A DNA stretch of 64,000 nucleotides from positions 96,001-160,000 of the forward strand of contig JBIJDH010000010.1 of the NCBI GenBank assembly GCA_044344255.1, read 5' to 3'. The position numbers and the translations under genes were made by a program. The notes beneath the pieces were generated by a model that was given only the letters and a program-made list of their open reading frames with translations, did not search any database and was not told the origin of the DNA. This DNA is from Myxococcota bacterium. GTDB lineage: Bacteria > Myxococcota_A > UBA796 > UBA2385. Within the stretch, counting starts at the first letter, position 1. Each line of letters opens with the position of its first letter. This document shows, piece by piece, positions 3,499 through 15,787 of this stretch.

Positions 3499-5814
<2,316 letters not shown>

Positions 5815-6176: not shown

Positions 6177-7226
6177 TCAGGGCGCGTCCGCGGGGCAGAG
6201 GGAGGCCACGTCGAGGTGGGTCTCCGAGCCCCACCCGGCCTCCACGGTGTCGGCCACGAGGGCGCCAGAGAAGGCGCCGAGCAGCCGCACCTGCCCGTCC
6301 GGCGCGTAGACGAGGGCGTTGATGAGCGAGCCGTCGTTGAGGCTGACCGTGCCGCCGCCGATCAGGTAGACGCGGAGCTGCTCGGGCGCGCCGCCGGGGT
6401 TCATCGAGGCGCCCCAGCTCAGCGTGAGGTCACCGGTGACATAGAGCTCGAGCGAGAGGCCGCTCGGGATCTCGAGGGCGCCGCCCTCGTTGGCGAAGTC
6501 GGTCACGAGCAGGCGGCTGTCGGCGGTGAGCGCGGCGGTGGAGCCGTAGCCGATACGCAGGCTGTCGAATTGGGCGTCCCCATCGAAGTCGTGGTGCTCC
6601 TCCCAGCCGAGGTAGAGGTCACCCGAGGAGGCGGGGAGGTCGGTGGGCGCGGCCACGGTCGGGAGGGTGGCGGGGGCCGGGAGCTGCACCACCCCGCCGC
6701 TGACCGATACCCCCCAGACCTCACAGTAGGCGGTGGCAGGGTCCAGGCCGACATAGACGGTGCCGCTCACCGTCGCCCCGTTGCTGAGCGCGCACTCCCC
6801 GGACCCGTTCACGGCGAGGGTGGCGTCGCTGCCGATGTTGCCGCCGCCGTAGTCCCCGATCGCGGCGTCGTAGCTGTCGAAGGCGGCCCCGTACGCGAGG
6901 GTGGCCGAGCTGCCCGCGATGAGGCCGTATTCGAAACAAAAGGCGGGGTCGTCGGGGGGATCCCCCCCGGTGTCGCCGGTGTCGGCGCCGCCGTCCGCCC
7001 CGTCCGCCCCGTCTGTGCCGTCGGTCCCGTCTGCGCCGTCGGCCCCATCGGTCCCGTCGGTCCCGTCGGTCCCGTCGGTCCCGTCGGTCCCGTCGGTGTC
7101 GATACCGCCGTCGCCTCCCCCTGCGATGTCCTCCCCGGCGCTACCCTCGATCGACGCCTTGGAGGCCCCGCAGGCGGAGAGGCCGAGCAGGAGGGGGAGG
7201 AGACAGGAGAGGTGCGGGGCTCTCAT
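6177..7226 (-). CDS. Lipoprotein with GTD-repeat linker and C-terminal beta-helix-like domain
   Basis: Lipobox LSAC; (DGT/DGA)n; LELYVTGDL...VYAP.G.V...GALVA pattern. Confidence 0.75.
   Translation of the reverse strand: MRAPHLSCLLPLLLGLSACGASKASIEGSAGEDIAGGGDGGIDTDGTDGTDGTDGTDGTDGADGADGTDGTDGADGADGGADTGDTGGDPPDDPAFCFEYGLIAGSSATLAYGAAFDSYDAAIGDYGGGNIGSDATLAVNGSGECALSNGATVSGTVYVGLDPATAYCEVWGVSVSGGVVQLPAPATLPTVAAPTDLPASSGDLYLGWEEHHDFDGDAQFDSLRIGYGSTAALTADSRLLVTDFANEGGALEIPSGLSLELYVTGDLTLSWGASMNPGGAPEQLRVYLIGGGTVSLNDGSLINALVYAPDGQVRLLGAFSGALVADTVEAGWGSETHLDVASLCPADAP
6990..7100. repeat. 9-bp tandem repeat (CCGTCGGTC-like) encoding DGT/DGA
   Basis: Directly visible tandem units inside the lipoprotein gene. 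Confidence 0.9.
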
Positions 7227-7275: not shown

Positions 7276-8472
7276 TCAGGCCCAGGCCACGAGCAAGAAG
7301 GTGGCGGCGGCCCCGAAGGCCAGCGCCGGCACCGCCCCGCAGAGGAACCAGTAGAGCTGCTCCTGGACGTACTTCCCGAACCAGCGCTCCACCAGCTTGT
7401 ACTGGAACATCCCGATGTTGATGACCATCGCGATCGCCAGCGCCGCGTAGTTGAGCGCGAAGAGGCGGGTGACCGTGTTGTCACCCGAGGCCAGCGAGGA
7501 GTACTCGGAGTTCACCGTGAAGTTGAGGGCGATGACCGCGAAGAGCCCGCCGATGACGATGTTGGCGAGCTCGAAGGCGTCCACCTCGAAGTCTCCCTCG
7601 TCGCTCACCTTTTGGAGCCAGATGGCGATCATCGGGATGAGGAGCGACGAGAAGAGCGGGATGAACAGCGTGGGGACCACGCTCATCCACAGCCGCTGGG
7701 CGTTCAGGCTGGCGATCACGCGGGCGTGCTCGCGCTCGTGCCACCCGAGGAGGGGGGCCGCGCTCAGATCGACGGTGCCGACGCTCCAGCCCCCGAGGGA
7801 GACGCCCTCCTGGGCGTGGCTGAAGGCGACGTCTTCTCCATGAAACTCGAGGCCGACCTCCTCGGTGGAGGCCTCGCGGACCACGACGGCCACCTCGAGG
7901 GCCTGCCGGTCGAAGGGGAAGCTCTGCTCGTCCAGCGTGGTCGCGAAGGTGCCGCGGGTGCGCTCGAGGAGCTCGATCTGGCCACCCTTGGTGACGAAGA
8001 GGCCCCGCTCTCGAAAGGCGGGATCGCCGACGAGGTTGTCGATCTCGACCCGCGGCGCGCCGAGCTCGGCGAGGGCCGCCTCTACCGCTTCGCCGTGGCG
8101 CTCCATCGGGGGCGCGCCGCGCCGCGTCCAGACGAGGCGGGTGTCAACCGTGGCGTCGAAGGTCTGCTCATTCTCGTCGATCCCGTCGAGCGCCACAAAC
8201 TGAACACCGACTCGAACCGGCAAGGCCTGCCCGTTCGCGCCGAGGGCGCCCGCAGGGGGCGGCGCCACCCGCGCGGCGACCGGGGCGACCGGGGCGACCT
8301 CCGGAGGCGCCGCCTCCGCCTCGACCAGCGGGGCCGCGATCTGGGCCGCCTTCGCTCCCTTCGCGGCCTTCGCCCCCTTCGCCCCCTTGGCGGCGTCCGC
8401 CCCCGGGCCGAGGGCGAAGAGGCAGACGAGGCCGATCGGGACCAGGGCGGCGAGGCGCCAGGCCCGCCTCAC
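7276..8472 (-). CDS. Prokaryotic pentameric ligand-gated ion channel (Pro-loop/Cys-loop family, GLIC/ELIC-like)
   Basis: Signal peptide, VRVGV..IDE..QTF...LVW beta1-2, FPFDRQ Pro-loop, pre-M1 Arg, M1 Pro (LFIP), four C-terminal TM helices. Confidence 0.9.
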   Translation of the reverse strand: MRRAWRLAALVPIGLVCLFALGPGADAAKGAKGAKAAKGAKAAQIAAPLVEAEAAPPEVAPVAPVAARVAPPPAGALGANGQALPVRVGVQFVALDGIDENEQTFDATVDTRLVWTRRGAPPMERHGEAVEAALAELGAPRVEIDNLVGDPAFRERGLFVTKGGQIELLERTRGTFATTLDEQSFPFDRQALEVAVVVREASTEEVGLEFHGEDVAFSHAQEGVSLGGWSVGTVDLSAAPLLGWHEREHARVIASLNAQRLWMSVVPTLFIPLFSSLLIPMIAIWLQKVSDEGDFEVDAFELANIVIGGLFAVIALNFTVNSEYSSLASGDNTVTRLFALNYAALAIAMVINIGMFQYKLVERWFGKYVQEQLYWFLCGAVPALAFGAAATFLLVAWA

Positions 8473-9590
8473 TTCTCACCGCCCGGCTCGCGGAGCGCCT
8501 CATACGCGCGGCCCATCTGCTGGAGCTCCTCGGGGAGTCCGGCGCTGTCGAAGGGCTGGCTGCGGTCGCCGCCGGCCAGGGCCTCGAGCCGCCGGGCGAG
8601 GAGCTCGGCCGGGCGGGTGAGCAGCCCCCGCACGCTGACGAGGATGACGCCCGCGCAGAGCACGGAGCCCACGAGCACCATGAAGCCCTGCCAGACCACC
8701 ATCCGGGAGGCGGTGGCCCGCGAGCTCGTGAAGTCACCCGAGACGGCGAACATGCCGATGGTGGTGCCCGCGTGGTCCTTCACGGGGAGGAGCACCACGC
8801 CGTAGGGCACGCCGAAGGCCTCGCGGACATAGTCCTGGCTCGCCGTGCTCGCGAGGTCGCGGTCGCTCACCAGGGCGGCCATCCGCTCGCGGTGGGTGGT
8901 GTAGAAGCGCACGTAGGGGCCCACCCGGTTGGCCTCGGTGAGCACGTCGCCGGCGAGGTGGGTCGAGATCTCGCGCAGCAGCGCCTCGTTGAAGAAGATG
9001 GCCGCGTCGAGGCCATAGGCCGACTTGATGCCGTCGATGATCGGGCCGTAGTCGAGGCCGAACTCGATGGTGCCGAGGTGGGCGCCCTCGCTGTCGGTGA
9101 TCGGGGCCACACCCACGATCGAGGCGCCGGAGCGGGAGATCGAGACGCCCTTGATCGGCTGGCGTCGCTCGTTGGCCTCGACGATCATCGGCCGGTAGGC
9201 GCTGAGGTCCTCGCCGATGCCGTCCTTCGGAGAGTGGAGGCGCAAGAACATGGTGGCGGGGGGCACGGCGATGGCGGCCTGGCGCACGCCGAAGCGCTCT
9301 TTCTGCACGCGGAAGGAGTCGCCCACGTCGGCGTAGAGCGCCTCGCGGTCGCCGCTCTTCATGGCCCGCCGCACGCCCTCGAGGCGGGCGTAGATCTCCG
9401 CGTCGGCCAGCGCCTTGTCCTCGGCGTCGGCGAGGGTCTTGGTGGCGACGGAGCGCATGAGGCCGAGGCGGTCGGCCTCGGTCTGGGCGATGAGGCCCGA
9501 GAAGAGGCGCTGCGTGGCCACCGCCGTCAGCACGAGGACGAGGACCACCGCCGCGATCGACACGGTCGGTGCGCTCTTCTTGAAGGTCAT
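8469..9590 (-). CDS. dCache_3-type sensor with HAMP domain and no output domain
   Basis: TM, FLRLHSP..GEDLS.YRP..EAN Cache motif, second TM, HAMP (RP..LL...LAGGD...EELQQMGRAYEAL), then stop; GTGA overlap with the channel gene. Confidence 0.85.
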   Translation of the reverse strand: MTFKKSAPTVSIAAVVLVLVLTAVATQRLFSGLIAQTEADRLGLMRSVATKTLADAEDKALADAEIYARLEGVRRAMKSGDREALYADVGDSFRVQKERFGVRQAAIAVPPATMFLRLHSPKDGIGEDLSAYRPMIVEANERRQPIKGVSISRSGASIVGVAPITDSEGAHLGTIEFGLDYGPIIDGIKSAYGLDAAIFFNEALLREISTHLAGDVLTEANRVGPYVRFYTTHRERMAALVSDRDLASTASQDYVREAFGVPYGVVLLPVKDHAGTTIGMFAVSGDFTSSRATASRMVVWQGFMVLVGSVLCAGVILVSVRGLLTRPAELLARRLEALAGGDRSQPFDSAGLPEELQQMGRAYEALREPGGEK

Positions 9591-9773
9591 CCCACTCCCG
9601 AGGGCCGCGCGTGATCCGGGGCACCGCGGCAGCTATCCAACCCGGCCGGGGCGGGCCTCTCAGACCAGGACATGACTCAAGGCAGGCCTTGGGCCCTCGA
9701 CAGCGGGCCGACCGCGCGTTTGGGGTCGAGATCGCCCTGCCCGCACCGCCGGGCTCGGTTAGCCGCCGACCCC

Positions 9774-10889
9774 ATGGACGTTGACGCCTTCTCGAATGAG
9801 CTCCAGGCCCTCGGCGCGGCCCTGCGCAAGCAGAGCCCGGAGCGCGACGTGGCCCACCTTCGGCGGGTCTCCGCCGTCGGTCGGCTGTTCACCCTGATCG
9901 GCTGGGCCACGGCCTGGATCGCGCCCAACCCGGTGTCGATGCTCGGGCTGTCGCTCGGCCGCTTCGCGCGCTGGGTGATGATCGCCCACCACGTCGCCCA
10001 CCGCGGCTACGACCGGGTGGGCGGGCCGCTGGGCAAGCCCTTCGGGGAGGGCTGGCGGCGCTACATCGACTGGTTCGACTGGATCTACCCCGCGGCCTGG
10101 AAGCACGAGCACAACACGCTCCACCACTACCGCTTGAACGAGGCGCGCGACCCCGACCTCGTCGAAGAGAACCTCCAGTGGCTCCGCGACAGCAGCGCCC
10201 CGCGCTTCGTGAAGTACATCGTCACCGTCGTGGCCGCGCTGACCTGGAAGTGGGTCTACTACGCCCCCAACACCCTCGGTGAGCTGCACCGCATCGACGA
10301 CAATCGCGAGGGGCTCGACCGCAACGTCCGCACCTGGAATCCCCTCAAGCCGGCCGGGCGAGACCTCTACTTGAAGAGCCTCTTCCCGTACCTCCTGCTC
10401 AATTTCGTGGTCCCCACGGCGCTCGGCTACCTCATCTCCCCCTGGGCGGCCCTCTCGGTGCTGATCAACAGCGTCGTCGGCGAGCTCCTCACGAGCGTGC
10501 ACACCTTCGCGGTGATCGTGCCCAACCACGCCGGTCGCGACCTCTATCGGTTCACCGATCCCCCCCAGGGCAAGGCGGACTTCTTCCTCCGCCAGGTGCT
10601 GGGCTCGGTGAACTTCCGCACCGGCGGGCAGGTCAACGACTTCCTGCACGGCTACTTGAACTACCAGATCGAGCACCACCTCTGGCCCGATATGCCGATG
10701 ATGGCCTACGCCCGCGCCGCGCCGCAGGTCAAGGCGCTCTGCCAACGGTACGGTGTCCCCTATGTCCAAGAGTCTGTCTTCGCTCGGATCTGGAAGACCG
10801 TCCGGATCTACTCGGGTGAAGACTCGATGAAGGTGGCGAGCAGCGGCCTCTCCTGGGCGCAGGCCGACACGACCCCTCAGCGGGCGTAG
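9774..10889 (+). CDS. Membrane fatty acid desaturase
   Basis: His boxes [18 protein letters not shown]. Confidence 0.93.
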
Positions 10890-13066: not shown

Positions 13067-14614
13067 ATGACTTCGCAGCACACGCTTCCGCACGCACACG
13101 AGGGCGGCCAGCGCGCCCAGCAGGCCTCATCCGCAGAGGCCCGAGGCGCTCGGATCCTGCGCTCCACCACCCTGCTGGTGCCCCTCTTCGCGGCGGCGGG
13201 CCTCGCCCACGCCGGCTCGATCTCCGCCCCGGGCACGCTCGCCGGCCCCGACTCCGGCGCCGCCACCCCCGATCCCGCGGCCGCCTACTTCAACCCTGCG
13301 GCCCTCGGCGGCACGGAGGGCGTGAAGCTGATGATGGACACCCAGGTGGCCTTCATCCGCGTCGACGTCACCTCCACCCGCTACTCCCCCATCGGCGAGG
13401 CCGCCTGCGGGGACAGCTACGAGGCCGGCATCGACCCCAACACCTGCGCCCCCTACAAGGGCTCGAAGGCGCGGGTCCAGGTGCCGGTGGCCATGCTCGG
13501 CGTGAGCTGGAAGGTCATCCCCGACCGCCTCGCCCTCGGCCTCGCCATCTCCGACGCCTTCGTGGGCGGCGGCGACTACCGCGCCGGAGAGCCCGACAAC
13601 GAGGCCCCCTTCGAGGGCTCCCAGCGCTACGCCGGCGTCATGACCAAGATCATCACGCTCCACGCCAACCCGGCCGTGGCCGTCACCATCGTCGATGGTG
13701 TGCACGTCGGCGGCGGCGGCAAGATCATCTACGACAGCATCGAGGCCATCCAGGCGGCTGACCTCACGGGCACCGAAGGTTGGGACCCCGACCACCCCGA
13801 GGAGCCCTACTCCCGCGACTCCTACCTCGAGGGCAAGGCCTCCGGCCTCCACTTCGGCTGGGAGGCCGGCGTCTTCGTCAACCGCTGGAAGTACGCCCAG
13901 GTGGGCCTCTCCTACCACCACAACGGCGCCTTCTCCGCCGAGGGCGACGGCTCGCTCAACCTGCCGGACTCCATCGGCGCCGATCAGGACGCCAACGTCT
14001 CCTTCGACCTGCCTTTGCCCGACGTCATGATGTTCTGGGCCAACTCCCAGGTCACCGACAAGCTCATGGTGGGGGCCGGCGCCGACTGGCAGCTCTGGAA
14101 CAACTGCTGCGGCGGCGAGGACGGTGACATCATCATCGGCCTCACCAGCACCGACGACGGCGACGCCATCGGCACCGACGAGGCCGACGGGCTCGGCGGC
14201 ATCGTGGTCGACGACAAGCAGTATTCCCCTCGCCGCCTCTGGAACTCGGTCAACTACGGGGCCAACGCCGGCTGGCAGGTGACCGACCCCGTCTGGATCG
14301 GCGGCCGCGTCGGCTACAACCAGAACGCGGTGCCCGACTACGCCGTCTCCGCGACCAACCTCGACTTCCAGTCGATCGGCGTCCAGGCCGCCGGCCGCTA
14401 CAAGATCGGCAAGAAGCTCACCCTGGGCCTGTCCTACTCGAAGTTCTTCACCTTCGAGCGGACCATCACCGACTCCGCCTGGAACGATCAGCAGGGAGAC
14501 CGCGCAGGCTGGGACCCCCGCTTCACCCCCCAGGTGCCCTACAAGGCCGGCACCAACGGCACCTACAAGAGCAAGGTCGATGTGGTCGGCCTGCGGGTCG
14601 GCGCCGACTTCTGA
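13067..14614 (+). CDS. OmpP1/FadL family outer-membrane transporter
   Basis: AAYFNPAAL hatch motif, beta-barrel pattern, C-terminal Phe; true start may be downstream. Confidence 0.85.
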   Translation: MTSQHTLPHAHEGGQRAQQASSAEARGARILRSTTLLVPLFAAAGLAHAGSISAPGTLAGPDSGAATPDPAAAYFNPAALGGTEGVKLMMDTQVAFIRVDVTSTRYSPIGEAACGDSYEAGIDPNTCAPYKGSKARVQVPVAMLGVSWKVIPDRLALGLAISDAFVGGGDYRAGEPDNEAPFEGSQRYAGVMTKIITLHANPAVAVTIVDGVHVGGGGKIIYDSIEAIQAADLTGTEGWDPDHPEEPYSRDSYLEGKASGLHFGWEAGVFVNRWKYAQVGLSYHHNGAFSAEGDGSLNLPDSIGADQDANVSFDLPLPDVMMFWANSQVTDKLMVGAGADWQLWNNCCGGEDGDIIIGLTSTDDGDAIGTDEADGLGGIVVDDKQYSPRRLWNSVNYGANAGWQVTDPVWIGGRVGYNQNAVPDYAVSATNLDFQSIGVQAAGRYKIGKKLTLGLSYSKFFTFERTITDSAWNDQQGDRAGWDPRFTPQVPYKAGTNGTYKSKVDVVGLRVGADF

Positions 14615-14620
14615 GGCCCC

Positions 14621-15787
14621 ATGCGCGCCGTCCTCCTGCTCTGGCTCCCCCTCTTCGGCTGCGGCTCGGACGTCTTCGTCACCGAGAAGGGCCGCTGTGA
14701 CGGCCAGCTCCAGGAGACCGAGGGCGGGGTTGACGAGCCCTTCGACTCCGACGGCGACGGCTTCTTCGACGGGGCCAACCCCGACTGCGGAGAGACCTAC
14801 CCCGCCGACCGCCTCGACTGTGACGACGGCGACCCCGCCATCCACCCCGGCGCCGCCGAGCTCGGGTGTAACGGCATCGACGACGACTGCGACGAGGCCA
14901 CCGAGGACGACGCGGACGGCGACGGCGACGGCGTGGGGGTCTGCGCCGACTGCGCCGACGGCGACCCCACCCGCCGGCCCGGCGCCGCTGAGCTCGGCTG
15001 CAACGGCATCGACGACGACTGCGACGAGGCCACGCCAGACGAGGATGACGCCGATGGGGACGGCGCGAGCTCCTGCGAGGACTGCGACGACGGGGACAGC
15101 AACCGCGCGCCGGGGCGCGTCGAGATCCTGTGCAACGACATCGACGACGACTGCGACGCGGCCACGGTCGACGCCCTCGACGCCGACCTCGACGGGGCCA
15201 GCTCCTGTGAGGACTGCGACGATGACGCCCCGGACGTGCACCCGGGCGCCCTCGAGGTCCCCTGCACCGGCATCGACGAGGACTGCGAGGCCGCCACACC
15301 CGACGCGCCCGACCTCGACGCCGACGGCTGGAGCGCCTGTGAGGACTGCGACGAGGGGGACACCGCCGTCTCCCCCGGCGCCGAAGAGCTCTGCGACAAC
15401 GGCATAGACGACGACTGCGACGACGAGATCGACGAGCTCTGCGACGTCTCCTACTCAGACTCCTGGACCCTCGACGACACGATCCAGTATTCTTGCGTCT
15501 GGGGCCTCGTGTCGGTCAACTTCTCGAAGCTCAACATCCTCGACGCCCGCCCCGACATCACGGTGGCGCCGCCTTCGGGCTCGCAGCCCGGTACGATGAG
15601 CGGCAGCTTCACCGGCACCACGACGTTTACGGCCGAGAACATCCTCACCGGGAGCTGCGACGAGATCTATACGATCGAGGGCGAGTTCCCGACGGCCACC
15701 ACGCTGAGCGGCACCCTCTCGATCAGCTTCGTGGGCACCTGCTTCGACTGCACCGCCCAGTCTTTCCCCTTCACGGGCAGCCGCTGA
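14621..15787 (+). CDS. Lipoprotein with putative metal-binding (MopE-like) Cys/Asp repeats
   Basis: Lipobox LFGC; five DCDD....PGA.E.CNGIDDDCD units. Confidence 0.88.
   Translation: MRAVLLLWLPLFGCGSDVFVTEKGRCDGQLQETEGGVDEPFDSDGDGFFDGANPDCGETYPADRLDCDDGDPAIHPGAAELGCNGIDDDCDEATEDDADGDGDGVGVCADCADGDPTRRPGAAELGCNGIDDDCDEATPDEDDADGDGASSCEDCDDGDSNRAPGRVEILCNDIDDDCDAATVDALDADLDGASSCEDCDDDAPDVHPGALEVPCTGIDEDCEAATPDAPDLDADGWSACEDCDEGDTAVSPGAEELCDNGIDDDCDDEIDELCDVSYSDSWTLDDTIQYSCVWGLVSVNFSKLNILDARPDITVAPPSGSQPGTMSGSFTGTTTFTAENILTGSCDEIYTIEGEFPTATTLSGTLSISFVGTCFDCTAQSFPFTGSR

Follow-up and report, generated by a model that had tools for sequence, protein, structure and literature searches.

A dCache_3 sensor protein without an output domain and a Pro-loop channel form a conserved, translationally coupled gene pair in bacteria

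We analyzed a 64,000-nucleotide window of a Myxococcota bacterium (positions 96,001 to 160,000 of contig JBIJDH010000010.1, assembly GCA_044344255.1) and found that a membrane-anchored sensor protein and a pentameric ligand-gated ion channel (pLGIC) are encoded there as a conserved cassette, which is near-obligate for a whole channel lineage. Positions 7276 to 9590 of the window are filled, as an initial annotation had placed them, by two minus-strand open reading frames with the sensor gene upstream of the channel gene. The sensor gene (9590→8469) encodes 373 residues, comprising a short cytoplasmic N terminus, a first transmembrane (TM) helix, a periplasmic dCache_3 domain, a second TM helix, and a degenerate HAMP domain followed by the stop. 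The channel gene (8472→7276) encodes a Pro-loop pentameric channel subunit of 398 residues, with a signal-like N terminus, an Ala/Pro/Lys-rich linker, a beta-sandwich extracellular domain (ECD), and four TM helices. The two genes are translationally coupled: minus-strand bases 8469 to 8472 read GTGA, in which TGA is the sensor stop and GTG the channel start, and the overlap proposed in the initial annotation is thereby confirmed. Judging from sequence conservation and structural models, the dCache_3 protein is probably a dedicated auxiliary subunit that would pass a ligand-driven movement on to the channel.

Pfam dCache_3 (PF14827) matched sensor residues 48 to 220, between the two TM helices, with an E value of 5.7e-19 and 69.1 bits against a gathering cut-off of 25.7; by Pfam and structural alignment together, the double Cache domain spans about residues 48 to 287 (8730..9449, minus strand, as for all features of the pair). 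TM2 was placed at residues 302 to 320 (8631..8687) by hydropathy and conservation. HAMP (PF00672) matched residues 322 to 368 (8487..8627) with 17.9 bits, below the 25-bit cut-off, and the family profile matched the Af1503 HAMP weakly (E value of 0.0074). The AlphaFold model of the sensor (predicted local distance difference test [pLDDT] score of 89.7) begins with TM1 and its stalk as one long helix, continues through both Cache halves and TM2, and closes with a helix-loop-helix at the HAMP position; by position, fold, and the weak Af1503 match, this tail is HAMP-like despite its sub-cut-off Pfam score. dCache_3 was the one Pfam domain over its cut-off, the stop follows the HAMP segment by 5 residues, and no MCPsignal, kinase, or cyclase domain was detected among the Pfam domains. 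The protein is therefore, as first described, a TM-dCache-TM-HAMP protein without a kinase, methyl-accepting chemotaxis protein (MCP), or cyclase output.

The AlphaFold model of the channel (pLDDT of 94.6) matched sTeLIC, GLIC, ELIC, and DeCLIC with E values of about 1e-19 to 1e-20, and hydropathy resolved an N-terminal signal-like segment and four further hydrophobic segments. By model and hydropathy, the protein has the pLGIC fold, in which a beta-sandwich ECD is followed by four TM helices. Its pLGIC motifs, the Pro-loop F185-P-F-D188 (FPFD; 7909..7920), the pre-M1 R260, and the M1 P272, are 97 to 100% conserved. Model, motifs, and hydropathy all bear out a complete Pro-loop channel with its own signal-like segment. 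Of the three profiles named for confirmation in the initial annotation, dCache_3 was found, HAMP remained under its cut-off, and Neur_chan_LBD was weak on the window channel (E value of 0.017), with PF02931 present in most of the listed homologs; the channel was also below the cut-off of NCBIfam LGIC_1.

To survey the gene neighborhood, we collected loci with a channel alignment, which was used in place of the sensor sequence because a genome scan with the latter alone gave no matches. The best 80 of 115 GTDB loci and the best 80 of 128 metagenome loci were examined. A sensor match lay directly upstream of the channel in 78 of the 80 GTDB loci and in 71 of the 80 metagenome loci, and the 11 loci without a sensor (2 GTDB and 9 metagenome) end at a contig edge, no more than 413 bases before the match. 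The GTDB loci are labeled with eight phyla (Pseudomonadota, 35; Myxococcota, 17; Verrucomicrobiota, 14; Acidobacteriota, 5; Bacillota, 2; Planctomycetota, Spirochaetota, and Chloroflexota, 1 each), and four are unranked. The stop-start overlap is 4 bases long in 61 of the 77 loci that could be scored and 1 base long in another 7. Intact sensors of the GTDB set terminate 1 to 36 residues past the HAMP end of the profile; broken sensor frames (L050 and L074), partial sensors at contig ends (L043 and L044), and a split sensor (L159) were counted as sensor matches and left out of this length statement. Channel frames are split in L059 and L074, and the broken frames in L050, L059, L074, and L159 are pseudogenes or assembly errors. 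Co-conservation and translational coupling in related genomes were thus found as the initial annotation had predicted, and neither of the outcomes it named as refuting, sensor homologs continuing into MCP or kinase domains and genes that are not co-conserved, was encountered. No third neighbor family was common to the loci beyond generic families or close kin, and no conserved kinase gene stood beside the pair. ABC (ATP-binding cassette) transporter genes lie upstream of the sensor in six related Rhizobiaceae-type loci (L008, L011, L020, L022, L033, and L074), a lineage-specific synteny. In one locus (L138:3-2611), tandem sensor genes precede a single channel gene, and the first sensor ends in a repeated tail of about 17 residues.

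The pairing was also evident in genome samples that had not been selected for it, comprising 301 genomes of the window's own phylum and 350 of the class of G004. Among their 49 channel loci, the sensor was beside 4 of 4 channels scoring at least 140 bits and 0 of 45 scoring at most 115 bits; the flanks of unlinked loci covered about 1.5 kb only, so that a more distant sensor would escape. When 251 genomes belonging to the family of G001 were searched for the sensor, a distant sensor group emerged whose members likewise overlap a channel gene. In the reverse direction, the channel was directly downstream of 21 of 25 short-frame sensor matches with known context. The genome of the window itself holds a second pair (C36:107379-109669), whose sensor and channel are 37% and 41% identical to those of the window and overlap by a 4-base ATGA. 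This C36 pair (L001:6380-8673) is the more canonical one, and the two channel paralogues could form mixed pentamers.

We compared the histories of the two proteins in a sensor tree and a quick IQ-TREE channel tree. The latter contained 32 sensor-linked and 42 unlinked channels, with 23 of the 134 subclade-1 channels chosen; L206, L233, and L234 (broken or split frames) and L192 and L222 (duplicates of L001 and L039) were excluded. The sensor-linked channels fell on one side of a single long branch, opposite the unlinked channels, with a Shimodaira-Hasegawa-like approximate likelihood ratio test (SH-aLRT) value of 100, and formed three subclades. The sensor tree set the short sensors apart from output-bearing dCache_3 proteins (SH-aLRT of 97) and returned the same three subclades. 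Within subclade 1, 30 supported splits were common to both trees (43 supported in the sensor tree and 40 in the channel tree), compared to at most 2 in 500 shuffles. The shared splits show joint inheritance of sensor and channel, not contact.

What marks subclade 1, which contains the window's pair, is HAMP, a long acidic linker between M1 and M2, and the M2 residues Glu (−1'), Leu (0'), and Phe (9' and 16'). Conservation and alignment place the extended acidic linker at residues 286 to 300 (7573..7617); it occurs in subclade 1 only and is 7 to 8 residues longer than in unlinked bacterial pLGICs. In the pore helix M2 (7504..7572), E-1' (E301), N2', G6', F9', A13', and F16' are 99 to 100% conserved; the prime numbers follow what we take to be the usual M2 convention, with the register set by alignment to unlinked pLGICs that have D-1'/R0' and the M2-M3 Pro. 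E301 is Glu in 99% of subclade 1, and position 0' is Leu, not the Arg/Lys of the E-[R/K] rule stated in PMC549065. The Glu at −1' makes cation selectivity of the subclade-1 channel plausible. The initial annotation had also favored cation selectivity, on the strength of the acidic linker; E301 is the stronger argument for it. Phe9' and Phe16' may form a hydrophobic gate.

The other two subclades bear on how sensor and channel could communicate. In subclade 2, HAMP is absent in 10 of 10 loci, where 10 to 13 residues follow TM2 and the gene overlap is retained; aligned members have Asp at −1', and their channels are about 23% identical to that of the window. Subclade 3 (L223, L224, and P0252) has HAMP, a short linker, and no acid at −1', and may differ in ion selectivity. 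Subclade-1 sensors themselves conserve HAMP weakly: its mean top-residue frequency of 0.51, among the lowest of any part, compares with 0.63 and 0.60 for the Cache halves. Common to all three subclades is only the TM-dCache_3-TM core; therefore, a general coupling must run via the periplasm or the membrane rather than via HAMP and the loop between M1 and M2. Docking of HAMP on the long acidic linker, as first envisaged, fails as a general mechanism, given the subclade-2 sensors without HAMP, the short linker of subclade 3, and the weak conservation of HAMP in subclade 1, but a contact of this kind could exist within subclade 1 alone. Output-less family members with additional parts were also seen: P0151 and P0178 have one or two 4HB_MCP_1 domains in front, and P0159 has a tandem TM-dCache_3-TM repeat.

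The membrane-distal Cache half of the sensor is closest to the citrate-binding domain of CitA (VIA-align, 2j80: Z score of 19.4, root mean square deviation of 1.9, 129 residues), and in subclade 1 R117 and R133 are each 98% and H119 is 73% conserved. These Arg/His residues in a CitA-like pocket suggest an anion or a carboxylate-type small molecule as the ligand. A PDB sequence search with the sensor gave weak CitA-type and HAMP matches only, and no ligand on record for a close dCache_3 relative. Ahead of TM2 stands a conserved Trp-Gln pair (W300, 82%; Q301, 93%). In subclade-1 channels, no aromatic residue is conserved in the ECD region that presumably corresponds to loop B, where unlinked pLGICs have Phe, Tyr, or Trp; this fits sensing done elsewhere than in the channel ECD.

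To evaluate contact between the two proteins, we modeled two copies of the channel together with one of the sensor in ESMFold2, a 2:1 stoichiometry set by choice. The complex score was 0.49 in three runs, compared to 0.00 for the best of three controls, with a contact agreement of at least 87% and a partner pLDDT of at least 79. In a benchmark, the mark was passed by 116 of 157 solved pairs and 2 of 215 mismatched pairs, and passes at scores of at most 0.60 comprised 18 of the 157 solved pairs and both mismatches. A PDB search found no close relatives of sensor or channel, which makes it improbable that the score reproduces an already solved complex. In addition, P0252 (790 residues) is a single chain in which TM-dCache_3-TM-HAMP is fused to a complete pLGIC. 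Covariation between the proteins (average product-corrected mutual information over 134 pairs, with an effective number of about 80) gave phylogenetic noise and no usable contacts. Altogether, the prediction weakly supports direct contact between sensor and channel, and in part the earlier idea of the sensor as a channel-bound subunit.

In the mechanism that we favor, the membrane-anchored dCache_3 protein would dock directly on the pentameric channel, at a site in the periplasm or the membrane and not via HAMP. The Cache domain would bind a small periplasmic ligand, the ligand-bound sensor would shift the channel between closed and open, and the output would be ion flux. A bolder proposal, which we put forward tentatively and regard as possible rather than probable, is that a whole ancient pLGIC lineage gave agonist recognition to an obligate, membrane-anchored dCache_3 protein of a separate gene, which would gate the pore from a position outside the pentamer; such a two-protein ionotropic receptor would be a bacterial counterpart of alpha2-delta, with cation-selective and possibly anion-selective versions.

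Several observations weigh against the sensor acting as a gating subunit. A complex score of 0.49 falls where passes are more often wrong without a good prior, and the ESMFold2 complex run returned no interface. P0252 is a singleton on one contig, has a signal-like stretch where sensor and channel join, and could result from read-through or misassembly. Any cassette moving as a block would be expected to show co-inheritance and matching trees, and neither demonstrates contact. A dimeric Cache/HAMP receptor is also an awkward fit to a five-fold channel. Four short dCache_3-HAMP genes have no channel nearby (two in G395, at L295:2841-5381 in tandem, and one each in G400, L296:6583-7881, and G801, L297:4383-5525), and such proteins can thus exist channel-less; all four have a canonical HAMP and lie outside the three subclades, three as a sister group and one as a long-branch outlier. 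Lastly, two near-invariant Trp residues are replaced by Gly in the window channel (G138 and G379). The first belongs to the loop-A WxP motif, whose Trp is present in 97% of relatives and is Gly also in P0003, P0004, and P0008. Overall, the window channel deviates at 8 of 68 columns of at least 90% conservation, and only 3 of 134 channels are as deviant. The C36 paralogue channel is canonical, unlike the window copy, on which selection has possibly been relaxed.

Among other explanations, the most serious, which we nonetheless think unlikely, is that the sensor-like protein does bind the channel but helps in its assembly, stability, or trafficking or modulates it tonically, while the agonist is sensed by the channel ECD. 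On calcium channels, alpha2-delta acts largely in this manner. The 1:1 translational coupling, the dispensable HAMP, and the weak complex pass are explained equally well, and invariant polar residues on the ECD beta-strands (D110, R112, E167, and R171), together with W244, could make a site of the channel's own. The near-invariant Arg/His residues and the CitA-like pocket fold in the distal Cache half speak for the auxiliary gating subunit instead, as they suggest that ligand binding has been retained.

Distinctly less probable is a role in which the Cache protein captures or concentrates the ligand and delivers it to a site on the channel itself, with no stable gating complex being formed; Tasneem et al. 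put such a role forward for operonic binding domains (PMC549065). Both the loss of HAMP in subclade 2 and the extra 4HB_MCP_1 or dCache_3 domains of P0151, P0178, and P0159 would fit such a role; two TM anchors and conserved juxtamembrane residues, however, exceed what a ligand sponge needs, and the predicted contact, weak as it is, also speaks against this role. We assign a still smaller chance to a sensor that signals in trans via HAMP to a separate cytoplasmic partner, e.g., a Ser/Thr kinase, with the channel merely coexpressed: Cache_heme-HAMP (CHH) receptors offer a precedent (bioRxiv 10.64898/2026.05.25.727664) and channel-less short dCache_3-HAMP genes occur, yet no conserved kinase gene accompanies the pair, HAMP is degenerate in subclade 1, and subclade 2 retains the pairing with no HAMP at all, all of which speaks against it. 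The notion that the sensor arose by recent truncation of a chemoreceptor or kinase and lies beside the channel by chance has a negligible probability and was rejected, for although some databases name homologs "methyl-accepting chemotaxis protein," sensor length and stop position are alike across phyla in GTDB and metagenome loci (the best full-length matches in a 50%-cluster library are mostly 364 to 395 residues), close homologs do not extend into MCP or kinase domains, in line with the initial annotation, output-bearing forms are distant (MCP, GAF, and kinase forms in that library begin at 207 bits, whereas family members reach 505) and separate in the sensor tree, and a search for longer sensor relatives gave just two proteins of 25 to 28% identity, weak evidence by the tool's own note.

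The surroundings of the pair in the window vary among genomes. A fatty-acid desaturase gene (PF00487, E value of 3.6e-21; 9672-10889, plus strand) diverges from the sensor gene and is not kept beside the cassette in related loci. Directly downstream of the channel, a secreted-looking protein with a DGT/DGA low-complexity repeat (6177-7226, minus strand) is likewise not common to related loci and does not belong to the cassette; this genome has further exported proteins with similar acidic repeats (L001:3795-4544). An acidic Cys-rich repeat protein with units of the type DCDD..DP..HPGA.E.C.GIDDDCD (14621-15787, plus strand) is preceded by a probable outer-membrane protein (13067-14614). A 744-residue enzyme (3499-5733), which we take to be a monomeric isocitrate dehydrogenase by resemblance, sits 1.5 kb downstream of the cassette, and 6 of 161 loci (L009, L014, L026, L028, L089, and L095) have a homolog of it, with 64 to 67% identity, immediately after the cassette; it is probably a chance neighbor, though a notable one given the CitA-like pocket. 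A search of a plasmid collection gave no match. RNA data, a single run with a small share, yielded two 151-base contigs over the 5' part of the sensor gene and nothing useful on the channel and are uninformative on transcription.

To our knowledge, the natural agonists and roles of nearly all prokaryotic pLGICs are unknown. If the lineage described here needs its partner, its channels might appear silent when produced without the sensor, and the ligand could be found by screening of the soluble Cache domain. Under the favored mechanism, if true, a Pro-loop channel would have an auxiliary subunit that gates it, and a chemoreceptor front end would lead to ion flux without phosphorylation or second messengers. 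We know of no separately encoded partner subunit for GLIC, ELIC, sTeLIC, or DeCLIC, which share the fold and the Pro-loop motifs of the window channel at 16 to 18% identity, and a literature search for such subunits found none. The accessory domain of DeCLIC is fused to the channel (PMC12664993).

The closest known case is that of Tasneem et al. (Genome Biol 2004), who described a Rhodopseudomonas channel gene in a predicted operon with the gene of a "stand-alone Cache domain" and suggested cooperation (PMC549065). It is the same type of gene pair as in the window, and subclade-2 channels group with the window's channel. Subclade 2 includes Rhodopseudomonas palustris proteins named "cache domain-containing protein" and "neurotransmitter-gated ion-channel" with consecutive accessions (ABD07455/ABD07456 and ABD88052/ABD88051); judging by the genus, this pair is most likely the operon meant, and the pair in the window very likely belongs to the same case as a remote member. 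The operonic arrangement was therefore already on record, and the initial annotation, which was right to cite fused Cache-pLGICs, had cited only these as known. PMC549065 treats the operon for one bacterium, does not mention HAMP, and proposes a ligand-concentrating role, whereas the window's family is TM anchored and near-obligate and has HAMP in two of three subclades. This was the only description of a Cache gene beside a pLGIC found in the literature, with subscription papers mostly outside the search; the words "cache" and "operon" do not occur in PMC4795631, and no ion-channel output is given for dCache_3 in its row of Table 1 of PMC4822843. The pairing is thus in print once, as a conjecture, while the literature search turned up no account of how broad and near-obligate it is, of the membrane anchoring, of the dispensable HAMP, or of the predicted contact. 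The 20-year-old conjecture (PMC549065) is now directly testable in harmless bacteria that are in culture, e.g., R. palustris and Azorhizobium oxalatiphilum.

Three further systems invite comparison. pLGICs with fused N-terminal MCP-N/Cache domains are described for Methanosarcina, Cytophaga, and Microbulbifer (PMC549065); like the window's pair, they join a Cache sensor and a pLGIC into a unit, whereas the pair consists of two genes and has a dCache_3-type sensor with two TM anchors and a cytoplasmic HAMP. CHH receptors are TM-Cache-TM-HAMP proteins without an output domain and were shown experimentally to bind the Ser/Thr kinase of an adjacent gene through HAMP (bioRxiv 10.64898/2026.05.25.727664). 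Both they and the window's sensor are output-less with a neighbor-encoded partner, but CHH receptors bind heme and work with a kinase, whereas the window's sensor has a single Cys and hence no CXXCH heme motif, a channel as its partner, and a dispensable HAMP. Finally, alpha2-delta of animal voltage-gated calcium channels is a separately encoded, membrane-anchored Cache protein (PMC549065 and PMC4822843); it belongs to another Cache family, serves another channel superfamily, and contains a VWA domain, so that its likeness to the window's sensor is one of analogy only.

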